The translations under genes and the position numbers were made by a program. The notes under the pieces are model-generated. The model saw only the letters and a list, made by a program, of their open reading frames with translations. It was not told the DNA's origin and did not search any database. From a virus, in the IMG/VR virus record IMGVR_UViG_3300035204_001594, positions 1 to 64,000 of that record: DNA of 64,000 bases; one strand, 5' to 3'. Below are positions 2,974 to 51,645 of the stretch, one piece after another. Within the stretch, counting starts at the first letter, position 1. Every line of letters starts with the position of its first letter.

Positions 2974-3968
2974 GCGTTGGATTTTAACCTCTTTCTCATC
3001 GTATCGCAGGGTCCGAAGAACCCAAGTGTTTTCTGCTTACTGAAGGTAGTCTCAAGGTGTGCTGCAAATAAAGTAGCCACGGGACTTGTGTAGTTTAGCA
3101 TGAATGAAGTCGGCCACACAGCAGTGTTGAGCGTTTTTGCAAACAATTGTTCAACCTTAGCTGAATCGTACTTAACACTCTGTTTGTGGGTCTTGATCGT
3201 CATATCGTCGCCTGCTAGGGCACAGACGTAATTAGCGCCTGTGGTGAATTCTCTTATTCGGGTAAGCTTTCGTTTGGGTAAGGGTGGGCATATTGCCGCA
3301 CATTTAGCTGTCAGTGTAACTTCGTAGCCTTCAGATGTAAGCCCTAGGCTCCACACTCCCCCGTAGGCCCAAAGTAACGATTTAAACTGTTTAATTAATT
3401 TCTGTAAAACATCAAGCTTAAAGTCCCCGCTGCCTAAGCCGGTAAAGGCAAAGGTACGGGTTACTTGGAAGTGTAACAGGTCTAGGTCTACACCGGGGGC
3501 GAACTCTAAAGAATTTTGAAATTTATTCCAGATAGCTAAAGTACGCCTCATCCGACAAGCGGGGCACAAATAGTGCTTACATGTGTACTTGGATAAAAAG
3601 GGTAACACTTGTCCATTCGTGCTTATTGTTAAACCGATAGGAGGGCATCTCTTACACAAATCGTGAGTAGCTTTAGACACTCCTAAAGAAGGGCCTACGT
3701 ACTGTTCCACTACAGCACGCCATAACACGTACAAAGCTACCCTATCGATAAAAGCGGTCTTAGCAGGGGGCGCCCAATGGTCGTATTTCTGCAGGGCAGT
3801 TTTGAGTCGATGTTTGGTAGTTATATACTTACTCACTACCAATGGATTGGTTTTCGGTAAAGTCTTACAGAATGTGTTTAAACTACGCTGAAGAATAGGG
3901 GACAACCCTATGGTATTGGGCTGGTCATTTAAAAGTAAAGAAATTTTCTCTATATGTTTCTCAAACAT
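2970..3968 (-). CDS. hypothetical protein with Zn-binding CxxxxCPxC motif (Rep-like, apparently lacking HUH)
   Basis: TCKHYLCPACRMRR resembles the Cys motif of pC194-family rolling-circle Rep proteins; no HUH motif seen; 4-bp overlap with dut. Confidence 0.5.
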   Translation of the reverse strand: MFEKHIEKISLLLNDQPNTIGLSPILQRSLNTFCKTLPKTNPLVVSKYITTKHRLKTALQKYDHWAPPAKTAFIDRVALYVLWRAVVEQYVGPSLGVSKATHDLCKRCPPIGLTISTNGQVLPFLSKYTCKHYLCPACRMRRTLAIWNKFQNSLEFAPGVDLDLLHFQVTRTFAFTGLGSGDFKLDVLQKLIKQFKSLLWAYGGVWSLGLTSEGYEVTLTAKCAAICPPLPKRKLTRIREFTTGANYVCALAGDDMTIKTHKQSVKYDSAKVEQLFAKTLNTAVWPTSFMLNYTSPVATLFAAHLETTFSKQKTLGFFGPCDTMRKRLKSNA

Positions 3969-39362: not shown

Positions 39363-40082
39363 ATGCCCGTAAAAACCTTAGCAGCCTCCCAGGTTTATAA
39401 ATCACTTATCGCTAGCCCTGACACCAGCGGCACGGCTTTACTTGCTCTATGCCTAGACGAGTTTGGCCAAGAGGGCCTCAATGGGGACCCTCTTGGCTTA
39501 GCTGAGGATATTAAAAGTGCTTTTGGGGTATCAGATATCCCCCAGGTTAACTTTGATAAGATTCAGTCCTTATGGACATCCCTTACTACCGATTTAGTAC
39601 ATACAGACCCCAGCACCTTCATACAGGCCTGTAACGCCCTGAATGGCTCTCCTATCAGTTTCGACATCTTTGACCCCGCAGACCCCTACGAGTGCGCCTG
39701 GGCCATTACAGAGCTCTCATTGCTTGATTCAGAGACTCCGGACAGGTTGAGTCCAAATGTAAAGCGTTATATAGGAGAGGCCTGTAAGGAATTTGGCCTT
39801 GTTAAAGTACCTTCTGTACTCAGCGACGTGGCTGATTTCGGGGAAGATGACTACTTTGAGTTAGCCGCTATTCAAACCGAAAACCTCGATGACTCTCAGG
39901 TGTTCCTGGCTAACCAGGCTGCCTTTAAAGAAGAAATTGAGAATTACGTGGAGGATAGTATGAGGTCCCTTATCCACGAGTTAAATATCCTGCCCCTTCA
40001 GAACAGAGAGGCAGGATGGGCAGATTTCTATAAGGTTATGGAAAAGAAACTTCCCTCACTCCAGATGTATTCTGGCTCCTAA
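39363..40082 (+). CDS. hypothetical acidic protein
   Basis: 239 aa, 3 nt after the previous stop. Confidence 0.65.
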   Translation: MPVKTLAASQVYKSLIASPDTSGTALLALCLDEFGQEGLNGDPLGLAEDIKSAFGVSDIPQVNFDKIQSLWTSLTTDLVHTDPSTFIQACNALNGSPISFDIFDPADPYECAWAITELSLLDSETPDRLSPNVKRYIGEACKEFGLVKVPSVLSDVADFGEDDYFELAAIQTENLDDSQVFLANQAAFKEEIENYVEDSMRSLIHELNILPLQNREAGWADFYKVMEKKLPSLQMYSGS

Positions 40083-40325
40083 CCTATACAGTATTTTAGC
40101 TAGATCTTGCGCAGATTCGCTAACTGACTCTTCGCTCAAATCCCATACTAAACCGTGAAGACACTCGTGAATAACAACTTCGAGCAGCTCTTCGGTTTCA
40201 TCCTCTACCTTATTACTTATTCTAATCTTTTTAGCTTTTGTACTCGGATTATCTATATCGCCCCTGGCGCTCATATTAATAGATCTTACCAGTTCCCAAT
40301 ATTTTCCCCTTAGGCGAATATTCAT
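40056..40325 (-). CDS. small zincin-like (HExxH) protein
   Basis: VVIHECLHG followed by E (LSEESV). Confidence 0.7.
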   Translation of the reverse strand: MNIRLRGKYWELVRSINMSARGDIDNPSTKAKKIRISNKVEDETEELLEVVIHECLHGLVWDLSEESVSESAQDLAKILYRLGARIHLE

Positions 40326-41776: not shown

Positions 41777-42193
41777 TTAGTAGTCTTGCTCAAATACAAC
41801 AGTAGATGAGTTATCGGGGTTTTGGAAGCTTCCCACTTCTTTAGCTAACTTTGTTGTGTCTAGTTTTAGCATAGTTATAGCTTCTTCGCGTGTAAGTGAG
41901 CTGCCAAACACCAGCGTCCACTCATCTGTAAGGTAAAAATGTTCTTTAGAATTTGGTTCCCCTACCCCTAACGTAGATATATCCACATACCTACATATAC
42001 CCCAAAACTCATCTCGACTAGCTCCACCTGGGGTAGTAGCCTCGACAGGAGAGCTGCGCCTTATTACCAGCAGCTCATTTTGAATAAGGGGGTCTGTGGC
42101 AAGAATACTAATGTTAAGTCTATACTGGGTATTGTTACTTACCTGAGAATCAGATTTTGTTAATGTTAGCTGTATTTTCTCGTTAGAGGACAT
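41777..42193 (-). CDS. hypothetical protein (probable virion)
   Basis: 138 aa; first ORF downstream of the group I RNA. Confidence 0.6.
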   Translation of the reverse strand: MSSNEKIQLTLTKSDSQVSNNTQYRLNISILATDPLIQNELLVIRRSSPVEATTPGGASRDEFWGICRYVDISTLGVGEPNSKEHFYLTDEWTLVFGSSLTREEAITMLKLDTTKLAKEVGSFQNPDNSSTVVFEQDY

Positions 42194-42219
42194 ATTTTTG
42201 TTCCGTCCCTTTATCGGGT

Positions 42220-42539
42220 TAAAACGGTGTCAAGCACAAACCTTGGGCTTAGCATCACTAGTCTTTTACAACATCGTTTGGATTACTTACGGCTTCATGT
42301 TACCGACAGTTTTGTTATCGCAAACTTCTTTAAAGCTTGCATCTACACGTCTCCGTATAGCTCGGACTATATCATCGCCTTGCGGCGCTGGGCGCTCATG
42401 GATCAAATTATTGTTGGGACTCATCGATCTAGTCTCTGCACCTTCTGTAAAACCTTTGCCCTTTACAGCTTGGCTCAGGATTGTCCTCGGCTACGCCCGT
42501 TAGGAGTTTCCCTGAATTCACCCAGTTTATACCGTTCTA
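42220..42539 (-). ncRNA. group I ribozyme (subgroup IA-like), stand-alone or permuted; core 42525-42307
   Basis: P3 CTGGGTG(42525-19)/CGCCCAG(42394-88); P4 TTCAGG/CCTGAG; P5 TCCT/AGGA; P6a CTGTAAA/TTTACAG; P7 GAGACTA(42436-30)/TAGTCC(42369-64); P7.1 GATCGA/TTGATC; P8 CGCC-GCAA-GGCG; P9 CTATACG-GAGA-CGTGTAG; P9.1 GCAAGCT/AGTTTGC; P9.0 AG/CT then terminal G at 42307. Confidence 0.92.
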
Positions 42540-42544
42540 CTACA

Positions 42545-42573
42545 ATTATAGGGTAGGGGGGTCTGAGGGGCAA
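42545..42573 (-). promoter_or_regulatory. sigma70-type promoter directly upstream of the group I core
   Basis: TTGCCC (42573-42568), 17-nt spacer, TATAAT (42550-42545); predicted start about 42538. Confidence 0.75.
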
Positions 42574-42583
42574 GTAGGTATAT

Positions 42584-43699
42584 TTAAAATATGGAGATAC
42601 TTTCTCCACCTTCTGCTCTCCACTTATTCAACCCAATATCATCAGCAGTTGAACCGAACCACTGATATTGTGTCGGTATCCCTGCACCTATGATTGTGGA
42701 TGTTCCGTCTGGTGTGAAATCGAAATTAGCGGCATCTGTGTAACTTGGGTCTGTTGCAGAGATGTAGTCGTACATCGAAAGGTGGTCTGTACCAGCCATT
42801 GGTACATATATCTCTCCACCGTTTCCATAGAATGCATTATTATAGTGTCGTGTTTCGCAACTGCTCCCGACTCTTAATCCTTTGTTTGTATTGTTTGTGT
42901 GTAAATTGTTGACCCATACACTCTGACCAGAACCTGAAATATATACACCATCATCATTTGAGTCAAATACACAGTTACAAACAACCGCACCATTATTGCC
43001 CACATATAAACCATCGTCACCATTGTTGTAAAACGCACACTCTGCAATTCTTGCGGCTGTACCACATCGCAATCCGTCCCCTGTGTTATTATCAAACAAA
43101 CATTTGTAATACATCGCAAATTGTGTGGATTGGGTTTCACAACCAGAGTCACCATTATTGTCAAAACGACAATTTACAAAGTTCCAATAGTTTGCTGTGT
43201 TATTTGTATACACTCCGTGGGATGTTGCTTGTGTAAATTGGCAATTCATCCAATGAATATTGTTACTACTTGCAACAGTTGCCTCTAAACAATGCTGTGC
43301 TGTATCATTTGCATCAAATTTAAGGTGGGAAAATGCACTACCATCGGCAGTTGCTACTGATATTTCTACCATTGGTGTTGTACCATTTAGTCCTGTACCT
43401 AAAATATTGACAATAGTTCCATCCACAACACCAGAATCATTCGCACCGTTGATTACAACTTCTCTGCTATTCCAAGTAATTGTGAGTTTTGCTGTGAGAT
43501 TGTAGTATGTCGCATCATCAGATGTTTTCATAATGCGGAGTTCGTCACCATCATTTAATATACTTGCACCCGCAATTTCATCAAATCCTTTTTGGATTGT
43601 TTGCCACGCCGCACCAGTGGATGTCCCGGCATTTGCATCGTCCCCGTTTTCGCCGTCCACATAGTAGATATTTACACTTGCACCATCGTATGAGGCCAT
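42584..43699 (-). CDS. right-handed parallel beta-helix protein (pectin-lyase-like, tailspike/depolymerase candidate)
   Basis: N-terminal YYVD...GDD.N.GTS...AWQTIQK motif; periodic (N/K)C.F.NN..DG coils. Confidence 0.8.
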   Translation of the reverse strand: MASYDGASVNIYYVDGENGDDANAGTSTGAAWQTIQKGFDEIAGASILNDGDELRIMKTSDDATYYNLTAKLTITWNSREVVINGANDSGVVDGTIVNILGTGLNGTTPMVEISVATADGSAFSHLKFDANDTAQHCLEATVASSNNIHWMNCQFTQATSHGVYTNNTANYWNFVNCRFDNNGDSGCETQSTQFAMYYKCLFDNNTGDGLRCGTAARIAECAFYNNGDDGLYVGNNGAVVCNCVFDSNDDGVYISGSGQSVWVNNLHTNNTNKGLRVGSSCETRHYNNAFYGNGGEIYVPMAGTDHLSMYDYISATDPSYTDAANFDFTPDGTSTIIGAGIPTQYQWFGSTADDIGLNKWRAEGGESISIF

Positions 43700-46600
43700 T
43701 AGACTGTCCTCCTAATTCTAACCGAAAGAGTAGCATTAGTTACCGTAGGAGTAGATCCAGTTTGTACTCGAAACTCCAATATATCTCCTGCGCTAAATTG
43801 GTACGTATTCCACTCACTGGGCGTAATTGTTCCGCTAGTTGCTTTATTTGCTGAAGATAAGGCAGGGGAGTAAGTATGGTGATAGTGGGCAGATGCTGTT
43901 GTAGGAAAGTTGGCATAGGTACACCAAAATATCTCAAAGTCAACATTGCCTGTATCTGTTGAAGTTAATGTCCACTCCACTATTTCGCAATCGTAAGGTA
44001 AAACTCTGTGCCCTTTGATACCTGTAGTTAGATTTGATGTTCCATTATCAATTCTAATACCTATAACCTCTGTTGAGGTGCTGTCTAGCTGTGTGCCGTC
44101 TGGAAACTGTAAATAATTACCTGTGCCAGATATTTCAGCCACACCGGCTACCTCTAGGTCCGAGTCAGGGGTCTCAGTCCTAATTCCTAGTCGCTCATTT
44201 ATATGATCGAAACACACATATGGAGAGGAAGACGGGGAGTCGCCTTCTGTGAAATCAGCGACTTCTATAAGAGCCCCGCTTTCTGCCGTTCCCGTAATCT
44301 TATCTCCATTACCGGAAGTTCCGGCATCGTCCATTACAAGTAGTAGGGATCCGTCTAAGTAATCTTCCGAGCTCATATCTATGTCTCCATTAGCCTGGGC
44401 TAAATTGATAGATACACCCACCTGTTTAGCTATATCCACAGCTGTCTCGAGCCCCTGCACCCCTATAGTAGTGTTTGTACTGGTACTCGTACTGTCACTG
44501 TACGTTAAAGTATGGGTATTAGAAGACGCATCCTCCAATATGATAGTAGTTCCGTCCAAAGCCGTTCCTACATCATACCCTCCCGTGAAAGCAGAAGGCA
44601 TTCCAGGGGAGCTCTCTACGTTACTAGCATCGTCAAAATCGGGAGAGCTGCTGATGGTAATAGATGTATTACCAGAGGTTCCCGTTGTCGCCTGCTCTAA
44701 CTCAACTAATCCCGGGGTGCTATTCACGCTAATATCTAAACGCTTTGTAGCTGAAGAGCCTCCACTAAAGTCACTAACATTTGTTGACGTGAGAGAATCG
44801 AAGGTATTAAAGGTAAAGTTAGAATCCATAGGACTATCTAGAAGAGCATCCCAGTTAACGCTCTTCAGTATAGACGTACCACCTCCTGCACCTTCCCCTG
44901 TATGGGTTATGATTACCTTAGCTCCTAGGGCTACAGCCAGCAACGTTCCGTTGTGCCCATCTGAAGAGTTAATAATAGCGGCGAGGTTAGTTGCAGCATC
45001 CGAAGCCGATGAGCCTCTATTAAATTCCTGACTGGCGGCCACAGCTCCAGAAGCTTTAATGGTATAGGTTTTCGAAGTGCCTGTAAAATCCATCAGTGTT
45101 AGAGTCTCGTCGGCGTAGTCGTCGTATTCCGCTGTACCAAACTGCAACCCTGTGGACGCCTCCCCTTCCCCGCCTGTTAGCGCTGTAAGGGCTGAGCCTC
45201 CTTCAACAACATTGTCCCATTGTAGATTACCTATGGTCGTATTTCCTTTAACACCCCCTACAGACTGCTGTATGTGTACACTTCCTGCAGTAGTATTTGT
45301 TGTAATTTCAAGTTTTCTCTCCCCTCCTGTAAACGAGGCGGGAGGATTAACAGAACAAAGTGTATTCCAGTCCCAGCTACCAGCAGATACCTTTATATCA
45401 GTGTTGCCCCCTGTACCTGTATCTCCTTGCGTCATAGTAGCTTGAGCGGAAGACACTGACACATCTATAGTTGTAGGCGCGCCTCCGCTAAAGGCGGATG
45501 GAGGAGCCTCTAAACACAGTGCATCCCAATTAGAGGAGTGGTTTATGGTAGTATTACCAGGGGTTCCTACAGCGTCCGCAACTAAAAGCACCTCTTGGCC
45601 GCTATAGCTTGCGGTAATTCCTCCGGCATTATCGTTAACTAGCTCTGCGAAATTTCTAGCGGTAGCTGACGCGGTTGTGCCTGCGTTAAACTCTTTATTG
45701 TTTGCATCTGCCGTACCGTCGTTCTTGATTTTATATGTTACGCTACTTGAACCTAGTAGTGTAATGGTCTCGTCCGGGTATTGTTTATGGGTACTACCAT
45801 TAAAGGTAAATTCGGCTCTTGCCGATGTACCAAAACCTGCGTCACTCTCTACTATAGTTTTAAAATTAGTTGCTGTGTCGTCCGCAGTTGCTCCGGTGTT
45901 AAACTCCCTGTAGGATGCGTTAGCGCTACCGTCGTTTTTTATTGTAAATACTTTCGATAACCCGTATGCATCTATTATCTCAATATTAGCGCTATTAACA
46001 TCCGCAAAAGTAGATCCAAAGGTAAAGGTGGCTGTAGCTTTTACCCCATGTCCATTATCCCCCTCAACTATTTCTTTAAACTGATCTGCTGTGGAAGACG
46101 CGTCATTCTCAGCATTAAACTCTCTATTGTTTGCATTTGCTGTACTGTCGTTTTTAATCTTATACGTGTAGCTGGTCCCATCATGACTCTCCAGAGTTAT
46201 GGTAGCGTTATTCTGGCTATTGTATTCAGTATCCCCAAATATAAATGAGCCTGTGGCCGGAGTCAGGGTATATGAGTTTTCTGTACTTACCGAGGTGTTG
46301 CCCTCGGTTCCAGGGGTTGCCTGGGTTAGGGTTACCTGTCCGTCTGTGCCACTAGAAGTAGCTGTAAGTAAATTTCCGTGCCCTCTTTGCACAGCCGCTA
46401 TAAAATTTGAGGCCGCCTCTATATCAGAATCCCCTAAATTAAATTCGTAAACACCTCCACCCGTATAGGTAGTGAGAGGATCGGGGTGGGTACTATCTGT
46501 AAAATCATATCCTGTAGTTATATCTGAGTTACCGGACTCCCCTCCGCCGGGCTGGGTTATTGTAACTTTGCCTGCAGCAACCTCAACGTTTAAGAATCCG

Positions 46601-48294
46601 TCGTGCCCGTTACTGTGATCTAGGGCTTCTTTAAGGTTACTGGCAGAATTGGAGGCCCCGGATCCTGAAAGGAAAATAGTATGCCCCCCGTGTATAAAGG
46701 AAGTTGGCATGGTTCCAGATACACTACTTGTGAAGTTGGAACCCGTGGTTATAGCGGTATTTCCTGAAACCCCAGATCCTTTCTGAGCTAGGGTTAATTC
46801 ATTCGTGGATACAGATACCTCAATCTCGCCATCGTGTCCATTAACGTGCTCTACAGCAGTTTCAATATTGCTTGCAAATTGAGACGCAGAAAGTCCTGTG
46901 TTTATAGCAGTAGCGCCCCCTGTGAATGCCGAGGGAGGTGCGGTAGAGGTAGAGGTATTAAATAATTCTCCTATCTTTATATACGTATTACCCGCTGTGC
47001 CTCCTGAGGCTTGAGTAAGTGTAATTTGAGCTCCGGTCCGCGCGACAGATATACGACCGTTATGGCCGTTAGCGGATTCTATAGCTGTTTCTAGATTAGT
47101 AGCTGAGTCTGTTGCGTTACTGCCCGCTAAGAATATTATATGCTCTGGATTACTGCTCGCAATACTTCCTGTAGTGCCTGCGGCTCTGGCTACATATGTA
47201 CGAACTACTCCGTCAGTACTCTGTAAAAGTATAGTGCTATCGAGCTTTGCAGCTGCGTCAAAGGTAAAGGCATCGGCTGTAGCCGCGATAAGGGCCCCGC
47301 TCGATAGAAATGCATCAACAATATAGTCCACCGATGTTCCATCGTCACTAATTAAATTCAGTGTACCTCCATCTGTACCCGTGCCACTTAGTGTAATTGT
47401 AGGAGAAGCTGCAGTAGATATATCTCCGTTACTGCCTGATGATTTAGCTATGTAGGTAATAGCTCCCAGCTGTAAAGTACTATTAGACTTAGCCGAGGTT
47501 GTAAATGTAAAAGTTGTTGAGGCACTGTGGTTCCGAGGGTCTATATCCGCTGTTCCGTCGTTTTTTGCTCTATATACCTTAGTTATCTGATTGGTACCAT
47601 CATGAGATGTAAGGGTAAGTGACGTATCGTTTTTACTATTATAATTAATGCTGTGAAACGTGAATGTGGTGGAGGCGGCTTCGGCTGAAGTGTTGTGCCC
47701 ATTATTAGAGTCTATGGCTTGTTTTAGATTATTAGCCGCCCATATAGCTTTTTCGTCTGCCGTACTTCCCGACCCAATATTAAACTGAACGTTGTTACTC
47801 CCGTCTAGATCTCCGTTAGTAACGGTACCATCTGTCTTCCCTATGTAGGTTTTAGATGTGGTATCAGAGGATACTAACGTGATGGTAGCGTCTGCCACCG
47901 CTGTGTTTATAAACTGGAATGTAGCTGTACCAGGTACGGATTCGGCACGTTGAAACAACGTGGTAGCCGCCGCTGTATTAGATCCTTTGATCATCTGTAC
48001 GTATCCGGAGAACTTTTTACCGACCGGTATAGTAGAACTCACCGTTGAGGAAACGTAACTACGAGAGTCTCCCAACTCCCTCCACGTGGTATACTCGACG
48101 GCATTATAGTACTTTAAAACATGGTCAGTTTCGTCGTACCAAAGATCTCCAACCTTACTTATATCATCTGTTGGAGCCTGCGTCCCATAATGAATGCGGA
48201 CATACGGAGCCGCAGCGGTTTTATCCGGGCTAATCGTCGTATACTGAGGAGCGTTTAATAGCTGTTGTAGGTGTCTGGTCCAATTTTTGGACAT
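43699..48294 (-). CDS. giant probable virion protein built from about 10 nested copies of a ~110-aa module
   Basis: Recurring ATFTF..TITL...DG..TY / EFN.G..A...A.N...I.S.NGH / VTLTQ...G..GNT.I...SAFSGG; N-terminal AP.....GDLWYD and C-terminal RLGI.T.TP...LEVAG fibre-type motifs. Confidence 0.75.
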   Translation of the reverse strand: MSKNWTRHLQQLLNAPQYTTISPDKTAAAPYVRIHYGTQAPTDDISKVGDLWYDETDHVLKYYNAVEYTTWRELGDSRSYVSSTVSSTIPVGKKFSGYVQMIKGSNTAAATTLFQRAESVPGTATFQFINTAVADATITLVSSDTTSKTYIGKTDGTVTNGDLDGSNNVQFNIGSGSTADEKAIWAANNLKQAIDSNNGHNTSAEAASTTFTFHSINYNSKNDTSLTLTSHDGTNQITKVYRAKNDGTADIDPRNHSASTTFTFTTSAKSNSTLQLGAITYIAKSSGSNGDISTAASPTITLSGTGTDGGTLNLISDDGTSVDYIVDAFLSSGALIAATADAFTFDAAAKLDSTILLQSTDGVVRTYVARAAGTTGSIASSNPEHIIFLAGSNATDSATNLETAIESANGHNGRISVARTGAQITLTQASGGTAGNTYIKIGELFNTSTSTAPPSAFTGGATAINTGLSASQFASNIETAVEHVNGHDGEIEVSVSTNELTLAQKGSGVSGNTAITTGSNFTSSVSGTMPTSFIHGGHTIFLSGSGASNSASNLKEALDHSNGHDGFLNVEVAAGKVTITQPGGGESGNSDITTGYDFTDSTHPDPLTTYTGGGVYEFNLGDSDIEAASNFIAAVQRGHGNLLTATSSGTDGQVTLTQATPGTEGNTSVSTENSYTLTPATGSFIFGDTEYNSQNNATITLESHDGTSYTYKIKNDSTANANNREFNAENDASSTADQFKEIVEGDNGHGVKATATFTFGSTFADVNSANIEIIDAYGLSKVFTIKNDGSANASYREFNTGATADDTATNFKTIVESDAGFGTSARAEFTFNGSTHKQYPDETITLLGSSSVTYKIKNDGTADANNKEFNAGTTASATARNFAELVNDNAGGITASYSGQEVLLVADAVGTPGNTTINHSSNWDALCLEAPPSAFSGGAPTTIDVSVSSAQATMTQGDTGTGGNTDIKVSAGSWDWNTLCSVNPPASFTGGERKLEITTNTTAGSVHIQQSVGGVKGNTTIGNLQWDNVVEGGSALTALTGGEGEASTGLQFGTAEYDDYADETLTLMDFTGTSKTYTIKASGAVAASQEFNRGSSASDAATNLAAIINSSDGHNGTLLAVALGAKVIITHTGEGAGGGTSILKSVNWDALLDSPMDSNFTFNTFDSLTSTNVSDFSGGSSATKRLDISVNSTPGLVELEQATTGTSGNTSITISSSPDFDDASNVESSPGMPSAFTGGYDVGTALDGTTIILEDASSNTHTLTYSDSTSTSTNTTIGVQGLETAVDIAKQVGVSINLAQANGDIDMSSEDYLDGSLLLVMDDAGTSGNGDKITGTAESGALIEVADFTEGDSPSSSPYVCFDHINERLGIRTETPDSDLEVAGVAEISGTGNYLQFPDGTQLDSTSTEVIGIRIDNGTSNLTTGIKGHRVLPYDCEIVEWTLTSTDTGNVDFEIFWCTYANFPTTASAHYHHTYSPALSSANKATSGTITPSEWNTYQFSAGDILEFRVQTGSTPTVTNATLSVRIRRTV

Positions 48295-48366: not shown

Positions 48367-51300
48367 TCACCTTTGTATTGGGGAGCTGTTTGCGCGTCTT
48401 TGACGTTCACCTATACTTTTTAAATAATCGAATACACTAGAGAACCCTCCTGCGGAAGCTGTGTCTCTTATGTTTCCGGATGCAAAATAATACTCAGCGT
48501 TACAGTTTTCCAGTATTTGTTGTATATCATCAGCGTGTAGGCAGTCTCCGAGTTCCGGAAAAGCAACCACTGCTACAAATATAGACGGTACATCCTCCCA
48601 CCCCCCGTCGTAACCTCCTTGACATGGGTCGTGCCAAGGAACAGCGGGTAGGCATTCCTCGTCCATAGGAGGGTAGTAAAACATAGTTTCCCCTCCGGAG
48701 GGGTTAGAGCCATGGGTATCTATAAAGTCACCTATAGTGAAGTCTGGGGCATCTGCAGGCCGCCCGCAGATATCGTGGCAGGCTGGGGAGGGAGGTATAG
48801 GTTCTCCGTTTTTTAGACACTTGGGGTATAGCTCTGAGCTCATCGCCTCTGATATATCACACTCCTCCCCCGTCTCTATATTATAATCCCACGCTTTTGG
48901 CATAGTGGAGGGTCCGCCAGAGGACTCCAGACCCAGCAAGATTCCTAATAAGGCGCTAATGCGGTCTGCTCGTTGGTTTATATAGGTTAAGTACACAGGT
49001 AGCTCCACCGCAGTCGAGTAATCGATGATGGTAGCCCTATTCTTCTCGTTTGCGTTAGGCACGACACCGGACGATTTATAGCCCCTTATTCGAGACATAA
49101 AATTATAATTTATAATTGCGTCGTAATAAGCGGTGGCTACCGCCATAGCCTGGTATTGGGTTAAGTTTAGGGCGGCTAGCGCGCCCCCTCCAAAATTACT
49201 TAAAACTAAATTGGCCTCATCTAAGAGTGTTTGTATGTGGTAACTCACACTCTCAACAATACAGGTTTTACTAAAGGGATTAAACGTTAACGCCGACTTT
49301 TGGCTGAAATCTGGGGTAGCTCCGTCTACAGGCATGGAAGAGGATTCTGGTGAATAATCTCCCCAATACCCTTGAAGGTTACATTCGTACTCCCCGCTAC
49401 CCCAAGCAGTACTTAAAAATACTTTAGCATTTTGGCTTAACTTTGCTAGCTCATCGCCAGCGATAGTAATACAGCACCCCCCTACAGGCGTTTCGCACTC
49501 CTCACATATCTCATCTGCGAACCCTGTATTTCCTGCGTTATCACCGTCCCCTGATCCGAACAACAAATCACCTTGTATGTTGGATGTGTTAAACCCGCAG
49601 CATTCGATTCCATGCAGTCTGTATGCTTCTTTGTTTAATATCTGCAAGTATCCCGAGTCGCTATACCAGTATGGGTCAAAAACACACGAATAGGTATAAG
49701 ACCATAGACAAGATGTAGATGCACCGCCTGTATCTTCGTCCGGACTCGTACAGTTACACCCGAACTCCTCTCCTATAACTCCTGAGTGGGTACAGCATCC
49801 GTAGTCTTCCTGCCCTCCTTCACACGCTGGACCCGCTGGACCGTCTTCCCAGGACTTTACACAGTCTACAGACTCTGTACGCCCAAAGGATGCCGCTACA
49901 GCTCCGTAGTGTTCGGAATCACACATATTGCAGGTAAAAGTACCTTCGTACAGATTGTTAGATCCATAACATCTACATTCGTCAGCACACTGCCTTTGTT
50001 CGCAGGTGTTATATCCATTTTCTCCGCATTTAAGGTAGTACGGGCCTACTTGGTTATCGCACATTTGAGCACCCTCTTCTATAGAGTATTCTCTAGCGTG
50101 TGCTTCACACTCATCATACCTACACCAACTATCGTCGCACCCTGGTATCTGCCCTCCGCCGTGGCCCGATACTATATTACACCTAATACCATCTTTGAAG
50201 CAATCTAACTTTCTTTGATTATTGCACTCCTCTGTCTGACAATCTGGTGTATCGTCGCCGCCGCCCGAGGCTTCTCTAGCACACTCGCAGTCGAAAAGTT
50301 GTTTACAGGTGCAGTGTGTGTGGATACCCGCATCCTCAGGGTATAGCATAAACCCGCAGGGGCTACATTGTCCCCCTATATCGCAGTCCTCCGGATCACA
50401 CGGAACTAAATACCGAGTCTCATGCTCTCCCGAGGCTCCGACAATTGCAGAAGGATCTCTGGTAAAGGCAGTTGTGTCATAGGAATAAGCTTCTGAGTAG
50501 GTAATAGATTTGTCCGCAGCAGCTAATCCCCCAAATTTATGGTCTACGCCTCTGGCTAAACGAAGGGCTTCATATCTTCCCTCCCTATAGTCTGTAGGGC
50601 AACACCCTACACAACAACAATTAGAGTTATCCCAGCAAGAGCAACAGCAGCAGCACCAGCCGGCGCCTTGAGCTTGGGCGCAGGTATAATCTACTCTTAT
50701 GGAACCATTGCCGGAGCTGCCCATCCCAGAGGCCGCATCCATACACTCGCAGATATTCATGTCCTCAAGGCATACAGAACAGCCGCAGTAGTCTGCGGAG
50801 GGATCATCAAAAGGAACACAGCAGGCTCCCCTTGCAGCCACCGCACTATCACAAGGAGAGCTGCTACAACTCTCGCAACTGTGCCAAGATACTCCAAAGC
50901 CGTGCCAATCTAAATCGTGGCACTCTGCGGATGTGAGGCCATCCTGGCACATTACTTCGCAAGTCTCTGTGCTTGTATGACAACATCGGCCTACGGAAGG
51001 GAATGTATATCCGCAGCTACACTCTCCTTGAACTACGTTACAAGTCCAGTTCGCTATAAATTCTCCGGAGCAGTCAGCAGGACTATCTACGTCTATACAC
51101 TCATAAGGGGATAGGCAGCAGGATCCTGGTTGACTCTCCTCAGGACACGATGTTTCGTACGCATAGGTTGAGCAGTCGGGGTAGGCCGCCTCGCACTCAC
51201 ACTCAGACTCCTGCCCCATCCATATTCCGTTGGCCTGATCACAGTGACATCTTTCTATATTCTCAAAACACTCCCAGGGGTCTCCCGGCTCGTTCTGCCC

Positions 51301-51645
51301 ACAGCAAGCCCCATACGCCTCGGGAGGGCCATCACCAGGCCACGGATCCTGCCCGCAGGGTATACAGCAGGCGTCGCTAAAATATATACTTAAATAATCA
51401 CAAGTCCATATATCACAAGTAGGGCATTGGCCATCTTGGGAGCTCGTAAAGCAGCACGCCTTAGGCTCATACTTATACCACATAATATCTATAGTACCGG
51501 CTAGGCCTTGCTCTCCGAATAAATCTCGATATTCTTCGGTATTAAGGTCCCCGGCCTCAGAGAAGGGGTAGACCGGAAATGTTTTTTGATACCAACCCTC
51601 CCACCGAAGTAGGGATGCCTGTTTGCGGTAGCCTGCGGTGGTCAT
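48367..51645 (-). CDS. extremely Cys-rich protein with G[ASRG]CC repeats
   Basis: GACC, GSCC, GRCC, GACC, YGCC, GGCC units and a CCCCC run in 1092 aa. Confidence 0.75.
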   Translation of the reverse strand: MTTAGYRKQASLLRWEGWYQKTFPVYPFSEAGDLNTEEYRDLFGEQGLAGTIDIMWYKYEPKACCFTSSQDGQCPTCDIWTCDYLSIYFSDACCIPCGQDPWPGDGPPEAYGACCGQNEPGDPWECFENIERCHCDQANGIWMGQESECECEAAYPDCSTYAYETSCPEESQPGSCCLSPYECIDVDSPADCSGEFIANWTCNVVQGECSCGYTFPSVGRCCHTSTETCEVMCQDGLTSAECHDLDWHGFGVSWHSCESCSSSPCDSAVAARGACCVPFDDPSADYCGCSVCLEDMNICECMDAASGMGSSGNGSIRVDYTCAQAQGAGWCCCCCSCWDNSNCCCVGCCPTDYREGRYEALRLARGVDHKFGGLAAADKSITYSEAYSYDTTAFTRDPSAIVGASGEHETRYLVPCDPEDCDIGGQCSPCGFMLYPEDAGIHTHCTCKQLFDCECAREASGGGDDTPDCQTEECNNQRKLDCFKDGIRCNIVSGHGGGQIPGCDDSWCRYDECEAHAREYSIEEGAQMCDNQVGPYYLKCGENGYNTCEQRQCADECRCYGSNNLYEGTFTCNMCDSEHYGAVAASFGRTESVDCVKSWEDGPAGPACEGGQEDYGCCTHSGVIGEEFGCNCTSPDEDTGGASTSCLWSYTYSCVFDPYWYSDSGYLQILNKEAYRLHGIECCGFNTSNIQGDLLFGSGDGDNAGNTGFADEICEECETPVGGCCITIAGDELAKLSQNAKVFLSTAWGSGEYECNLQGYWGDYSPESSSMPVDGATPDFSQKSALTFNPFSKTCIVESVSYHIQTLLDEANLVLSNFGGGALAALNLTQYQAMAVATAYYDAIINYNFMSRIRGYKSSGVVPNANEKNRATIIDYSTAVELPVYLTYINQRADRISALLGILLGLESSGGPSTMPKAWDYNIETGEECDISEAMSSELYPKCLKNGEPIPPSPACHDICGRPADAPDFTIGDFIDTHGSNPSGGETMFYYPPMDEECLPAVPWHDPCQGGYDGGWEDVPSIFVAVVAFPELGDCLHADDIQQILENCNAEYYFASGNIRDTASAGGFSSVFDYLKSIGERQRRANSSPIQR

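Follow-up and report, generated by a model that had tools for sequence, protein, structure and literature searches.

Background

Lariat-capping (GIR1) ribozymes are derived from group I ribozymes; they lie in front of an mRNA and set its 5' end, and one helix joins their own 5' and 3' ends. Other self-processing RNAs carry their parts in a rearranged order. An engineered Tetrahymena STS construct, built in the order guide, ribozyme, insert, target, circularises itself, and the P1 helix alone is sufficient for this (PMC10457212). The ND5-717 group I intron of Corallimorpharia coral mitochondria is removed by back-splicing (PMC6545197). In natural circularly permuted group II ribozymes the splice sites are reversed and the circles made are small, at 15-86 nt (Roth et al. 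2021, PMC8637638).

Here we describe a group I element in a marine phage. The window (the whole stretch of DNA that was analysed, 64,000 nt) comes from a 77-kb virus record in IMG/VR. The element is fairly likely to be a free-standing group I ribozyme with a ribozyme-first layout, circularly permuted in the P1 loop, that serves a phage operon as its self-processing leader. The initial annotation of the window had already proposed a permuted group I ribozyme with no host gene, with its own promoter and with its splice sites in swapped order. This proposal is upheld by four homologous loci, which place the permutation and the predicted 5' splice site at other positions than first suggested. The features of the element are given in Table 1.

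Table 1. Features of the ribozyme locus, in the order of transcription (window coordinates)
Feature	Position	Strand	Basis or detail
Upstream gene, 371 aa, beta-helix tailspike-like	42584..43699	minus	Pfam Beta_helix, 1.2e-17
Sigma-70-type promoter	42545..42573	minus	-35 box 42573-42568, 17-nt spacer, -10 box 42550-42545
Internal guide sequence (3' strand of P1, transcript 5' end)	42531..42539	minus	Register and pairing; wobble G = G42537
Catalytic core: J1/3, P3, P4, P5, P6, P7, P7.1 insert, P8, P9	42343..42530	minus	RF00028, 71 bits
P9.1 hairpin	42320..42340	minus	Fold prediction and covariation
P9.0 3' strand (42309-42308) and omega-G (42307), predicted 3' splice site	42307..42309	minus	Conservation and covariation
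Spacer (formal exon)	42222..42306	minus	85 nt; last 7 nt belong to the P1 target strand
P1 target strand	42220..42228	minus	Predicted 5' splice site between U42222 and U42221
28-nt leader with ribosome-binding region, ahead of the 138-aa gene	42194..42221	minus	Direct reading
Downstream gene, 138 aa	41777..42193	minus	ORF list

Genomic context

The gene upstream of the element encodes a protein with a right-handed beta-helix domain and a weak match to a tail-fibre PHROG. It is uninterrupted and closes at a natural stop codon. Two very large virion-type proteins are encoded further upstream, of 1531 aa (43699-48294) and 1092 aa (48367-51645). A relative of the tailspike-like gene in viral contig L002 has the same C-terminal residues and the same stop position and carries no group I element. 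Interruption of the tailspike gene by the ribozyme was considered and rejected, since L002 has the same stop codon without a ribozyme.

Among viral sequences, the tailspike gene has its closest relative in L002 (259-1000). This contig has neither the ribozyme nor the 138-aa gene; the tailspike gene is followed there by a different gene, of 214 aa. Because both are missing and another gene takes their place, promoter, ribozyme and operon appear to behave as one exchangeable module.

The downstream 138-aa gene heads a run of small genes on the same strand that reaches to about 40056. Its protein has 21 homologues, all of them metagenomic. Pfam and PHROG gave no match for it, and a Foldseek search of its AlphaFold model (pLDDT 75.8) against PDB and BFVD returned nothing at E <= 0.001. 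The last member of the run, an 89-aa ORF (40056-40325), has a sub-threshold match to an SprT-like metalloprotease (22 bits against a cut-off of 25.6).

Homologous loci

Metagenome contigs were scanned with a pattern of the catalytic core, and four loci (L006-L009) were found. L006, L007 and L009 are complete; L008 ends after P7. The four complete loci referred to below are the window and these three. The three complete relatives share one order: the end of a tailspike-like gene, a promoter-like site, the ribozyme, a variable spacer, a conserved short strand, a ribosome-binding region and a homologue of the 138-aa gene. In L008 the tailspike-like end, the promoter-like site and the ribozyme are seen as far as the truncation. 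The homologues score 77-82 bits with the Rfam group I intron model RF00028, and the range across four loci is 71-82 bits.

L006 and L009 are 98-100% identical through the tailspike end, the promoter and the whole ribozyme, and about 60% identical from the spacer and P1 target onwards. On this comparison, the boundary at the 3' end of the ribozyme (L006:1440-1500 against L009) is a mosaic recombination boundary. The cores of L006 and L009 are identical and were counted as one lineage, which gives three independent lineages. Because there are only three, P1 and P9.0 are each supported by one compensatory event.

Other collections yielded less. Among viral contigs, the 138-aa protein, its alignment and one of two core patterns were used as queries and gave nothing. 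The second core pattern found only L005 in these contigs, an ordinary intron in a class II ribonucleotide reductase gene (nrdJ), where it splits a conserved motif into GYNP and C. The scan of viral contigs with the upstream gene found only L002, which lacks the ribozyme. Both scans of genome contigs gave nothing.

Of the words sampled from the stretch, 96% are present in two seawater DNA runs; RNA runs contain small shares only. Contigs from four sequencing runs contained only related cores; there were no joints, and 42150-42340 was not covered. One seawater contig (run X3) has a core about 97% identical to 42362-42541, but its P9 and 3' tail are different. In contig X14 the register of the wobble G described below is retained, and no upstream target is seen within 22 nt. 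The X3 and X14 contigs are possibly further members.

Catalytic core

The initial annotation had described a P3-P9 core with a terminal G at 42307 and had proposed a search of the native sequence with the Rfam group I model. RF00028 scores 71 bits (gathering score 50) on the minus strand, at 42614-42343, and it is the sole Rfam family reported in the window. Within the match, the P3-P9 core includes the P3/P7 pseudoknot, and its junctions are conserved.

In all, 70 pairs (P1, P3-P9, P7.1, P9.0 and P9.1) were placed on the alignment of homologous loci. Standard pairs are formed in 99% of the cells for these pairs, against 33-42% when the partners are slid by 1-3 columns. Two-sided changes occur at 12 pairs, in P6, P8, P9, P9.1, P9.0 and P1; none of 500 shuffles reaches 12. 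The P9.1 hairpin alone shows two compensatory and three one-sided changes among loci. Identity among loci is 89-100% in the core and 64-70% in the flanking coding sequences. Since pairing is kept, 12 pairs covary and the core is more conserved than the flanking coding sequence, the group I element is, on this evidence, not a decaying remnant.

The 'P1' aligned by Rfam (42609-42591) is a hairpin inside the last codons of the tailspike gene and has no U.G pair. The Rfam intron model assigns P1 wrongly in ribozyme-first elements, so annotated 'introns' outside any host gene probably include more of them.

Promoter

The promoter is called from its consensus match and its conservation. At 10 of 12 positions the -35 and -10 boxes agree with the sigma-70-type consensus. 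Their pattern occurs once in the window. When five loci are aligned, neither box varies, whereas the 17-nt spacer that separates them differs in sequence, a pattern characteristic of a genuine sigma-70-type promoter. Transcription is predicted to start at about 42538, within the first bases of the long-range helix that form the 5' strand of the ribozyme. The near-consensus promoter and the start position both agree with the initial annotation.

P1 guide and target

The 5' end of the predicted transcript (42539-42531) can form a 9-bp helix with a strand far downstream (42228-42220). The initial annotation had recognised this helix and had read it as a P2 that was opened at its loop. The helix itself stands: it belongs to the minimum-free-energy fold, its downstream strand is a unique complement of the guide, and it shows a compensatory change. 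Its assignment to P2 does not.

Four lines of evidence identify the helix as P1. The first is the register of the guide strand, in which the wobble G is followed by 6 nt, a 5-nt junction and P3, so that it lies 11 nt ahead of P3. P2 is absent from the nrdJ intron L005; there the guide strand adjoins the 5-nt junction and P3, in a register identical to that of G42537. (Rfam gave no match on the 5' third of L005.) The second is the geometry of the helix. Its one wobble, G42537.U42222, is invariant in four loci, and U42222, opposite the guide strand, has six Watson-Crick pairs on its 5' side, as is canonical for a 5' splice site. The third is a compensatory change from G-C to A-U within the helix in L007; mixed combinations of guide and target from different loci are predicted to be weaker.

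The fourth is the uniqueness of the downstream complement. In each of four loci the sole perfect complement of the guide sits 251-309 nt downstream, and an upstream complement was found in none of them (searched within 4 kb). The target is also the sole site within 4 kb with six Watson-Crick pairs and a terminal U.G pair in the four loci. In the window the target 9-mer is single-copy; when up to two mismatches are allowed over 14 nt, the 77-kb record contains one further site, with two mismatches. Register, pairing and conservation thus mark the long-range helix as P1, in which an internal guide sequence forms a U.G wobble at the predicted 5' splice site. The element belongs to a subfamily without P2, and the RNA is, on the same comparison, opened in the P1 loop.

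Two further pairings were seen in this region. The target strand can also pair with a nearby guide-like stretch containing ACGG in the window (42203-42227), in L009 (about 3861-3876) and in L007 (about 436-452). In the window this alternative partner and the ribosome-binding region overlap. The alternative pairing may act as a competing structure and so couple translation to the folding of the ribozyme, and is a hint of a switch. The fold of the window also extends the long-range helix into the promoter and ribosome-binding regions; this extension was rejected, as homologues do not conserve it.

Predicted 3' splice site, spacer and leader

G42307 is kept as YUG in all four complete loci, as expected of a terminal omega-G. 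The two bases ahead of it pair with J7/9 to form P9.0, with A-U and G-C pairs in the window and two A-U pairs elsewhere; P9.0 thus covaries once. The terminal G of the initial annotation is confirmed in this way. Its observation that the reading frames are closed after this G also holds: all three stop within 20 nt, and ARAGORN found no tRNA.

The spacer between omega-G and the predicted 5' splice site varies from 85 nt in the window to 61, 30 and 28 nt in relatives, and its sequence is poorly conserved. The leader between the predicted cut and the start codon is 28 nt in the window and 19-37 nt in relatives. A P10 pairing was not found, in agreement with the initial annotation. An alternative model with omega-G at 42296 and a 5' cut after U42251, which would give a 45-nt circle, was rejected, because L006 and L009 lack the segment.

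Proposed processing

Catalysis, both reaction steps and the purpose of the element are predicted from the arrangement described above. Transcription from the dedicated promoter would give an RNA that begins with the internal guide, followed by J1/3 and the P3-P9.1 core. The guide would bind the target, which contains the splice-site U42222 and is situated 3' of the core, 28 nt ahead of the start codon. In the first step, a free guanosine nucleotide (GTP) held in P7 would attack after U42222; the downstream mRNA would be freed with an added G and the 28-nt leader. In the second step, the 3'-OH of U42222, kept in P1, would attack the bond after omega-G 42307. The products would be an 85-nt circle (42306-42222) and a linear ribozyme of about 232 nt; the corresponding circles in relatives would be 61, 30 and 28 nt.

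As the cut falls 28 nt ahead of the start codon of the downstream operon, release of the operon mRNA is the likely purpose of the cut. The benefit may lie in giving the mRNA a defined 5' end, in shielding it from upstream transcripts or in control by GTP. In the proposed mechanism, the 85-base spacer is probably closed into an RNA ring. This circle may be only a by-product, or the second step may be absent, since the spacer ranges from 28 to 85 nt and is poorly conserved in sequence. Together with the unseen P10, the poorly conserved spacer may leave the second step doubtful in vivo.

Strictly speaking, the element is not an intron: the order of its splice sites is reversed, and no host gene surrounds it. 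An intron has its 5' site upstream and its 3' site downstream of the core, and ligates the exons of a host gene; neither was found here. What was found is a ribozyme-first, permuted layout, with a 5' guide, a target 3' of omega-G, both in one predicted transcript, and a promoter that abuts the guide.

Alternative explanations

The same architecture could perform one reaction only, either a G-dependent cut at U42222 or hydrolysis at omega-G, so that no circle is formed in vivo. This would fit the wide variation in spacer length and sequence and the unseen P10, and what is conserved in the region is where the cut falls with respect to the start codon. However, omega-G and P9.0, which are not needed by the first step, are conserved and covary. 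In addition, engineered constructs in the order guide-ribozyme-insert-target circularise with P1 alone (PMC10457212). A single reaction is unlikely.

Self-processing in cis also has to be weighed against a decayed, inactive intron remnant and against a trans-acting ribozyme with another RNA as its substrate. Together these have a low probability. Decay is contradicted by the high identity of the core relative to the neighbouring genes and by the compensatory changes in P6, P8, P9 and P9.1. Action in trans, in which the guide would cleave or trans-splice another RNA, was raised in the initial annotation, and the guide could in principle bind other RNAs. However, the target in cis has been conserved, and the window contains its 9-mer just once; the single two-mismatch site noted above lies elsewhere in the record. 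Since the cis target is conserved, cleavage of another RNA is not needed.

The detailed model of the initial annotation differs from the self-processing leader preferred here in where the RNA is opened. It placed the permutation in the P2 loop, took P1 to be the pairing of 42235-42231 with 42289-42285, and put the 5' splice site after U42285, giving a circular exon of about 22 nt (42306-42285). The pairing is present in the window sequence. However, the segment is missing from L006 and L009, where just 21-23 nt separate omega-G from the long-range helix, and it cannot be aligned in L007. Canonical L005 has the guide strand, not P2, at the register in question, and the long-range helix bears the conserved wobble that is expected of P1. 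Covariation among homologues, which the initial annotation had named as a check on both helices, gave one compensatory change in the long-range helix; the candidate P1 is not conserved. This version is very improbable. In its place, the opened loop is that of P1, the 5'-terminal strand is the internal guide sequence, and the 5' splice site is predicted after U42222.

An ordinary cis-spliced intron in a non-coding read-through transcript, with its 5' splice site upstream of the core, is just as hard to sustain: read-through from the tailspike gene is possible and Rfam aligns a P1-like hairpin there (42609-42591), but that hairpin lacks a U.G pair and overlaps conserved C-terminal codons, no locus has a guide complement upstream, and the conserved promoter abuts the guide.

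Significance

On balance, we lean towards the broader view that phage group I ribozymes have been turned from introns into promoter-proximal, GTP-dependent self-processing leaders, which would release an mRNA with a defined, short 5' end and a small circular RNA. They would form a new class of expression device in several phage lineages. Textbooks present group I ribozymes as introns. A conserved, naturally occurring member that is no intron, and that instead releases a message and probably forms an RNA circle, would, if true, extend the biology of the class as the permuted forms did for group II. It would also point to an unrecognised layer of phage gene regulation, through definition of the 5' end, insulation from upstream transcription or coupling of late gene expression to GTP. 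For applications, such elements would be the natural counterpart of engineered circRNA systems, and would offer a precedent from nature, and new compact scaffolds, for producing circular RNA.

Comparison with known systems

A natural phage or bacterial group I ribozyme with the ribozyme-first layout was not found in full-text searches of the literature. In these searches, the layout was found only for engineered RNAs (PIE, STS) and one coral mitochondrial intron (PMC6545197).

Canonical phage introns, such as the nrdJ intron L005 and the DNA polymerase intron of Ralstonia phage BOESR1, have a P3-P8 core nearly identical to that of the phage element, and L005 shares its guide-J1/3-P3 register. 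In contrast to the phage element, the 5' splice site of these introns lies upstream of the guide, inside conserved coding sequence, and their exons are ligated.

GIR1 differs from the phage element in its remodelled core and its branching chemistry. A GIR1-type core was searched for with its own Rfam model and was not found; the window scan reports RF00028 alone. The permuted group II ribozymes resemble the phage element in being natural, permuted and of a self-splicing type, with reversed splice sites. However, they belong to another ribozyme class, use branching chemistry and are bacterial or plasmid-borne. The group II domain order D5-D6-D1-D4 is not present here, and Rfam reports no group II family in the window.

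Coral ND5-717 is a natural group I intron with a permuted intron-exon precursor and a circular RNA that contains the exon (PMC6545197); the likeness to the phage element is in the permuted layout. ND5-717 is a true intron of a protein gene, permuted in P8; it is a giant intron in a circular genome and its product is a functional mRNA. In contrast, the phage element has no host gene, and the element that is opened is P1.

The engineered STS constructs have the same order of parts as the phage element: guide and ribozyme come first, followed by the insert and a 3' target. In STS, two transesterifications circularise the insert, and the same pair of reactions is predicted for the phage element. 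STS constructs are man-made and based on an IC1 intron, whereas the phage element is natural, has a td/Twort-like core with a P7.1 insert and is driven by a promoter. Unlike in STS, the predicted cut in the phage element lies just ahead of the ribosome-binding site of an operon.
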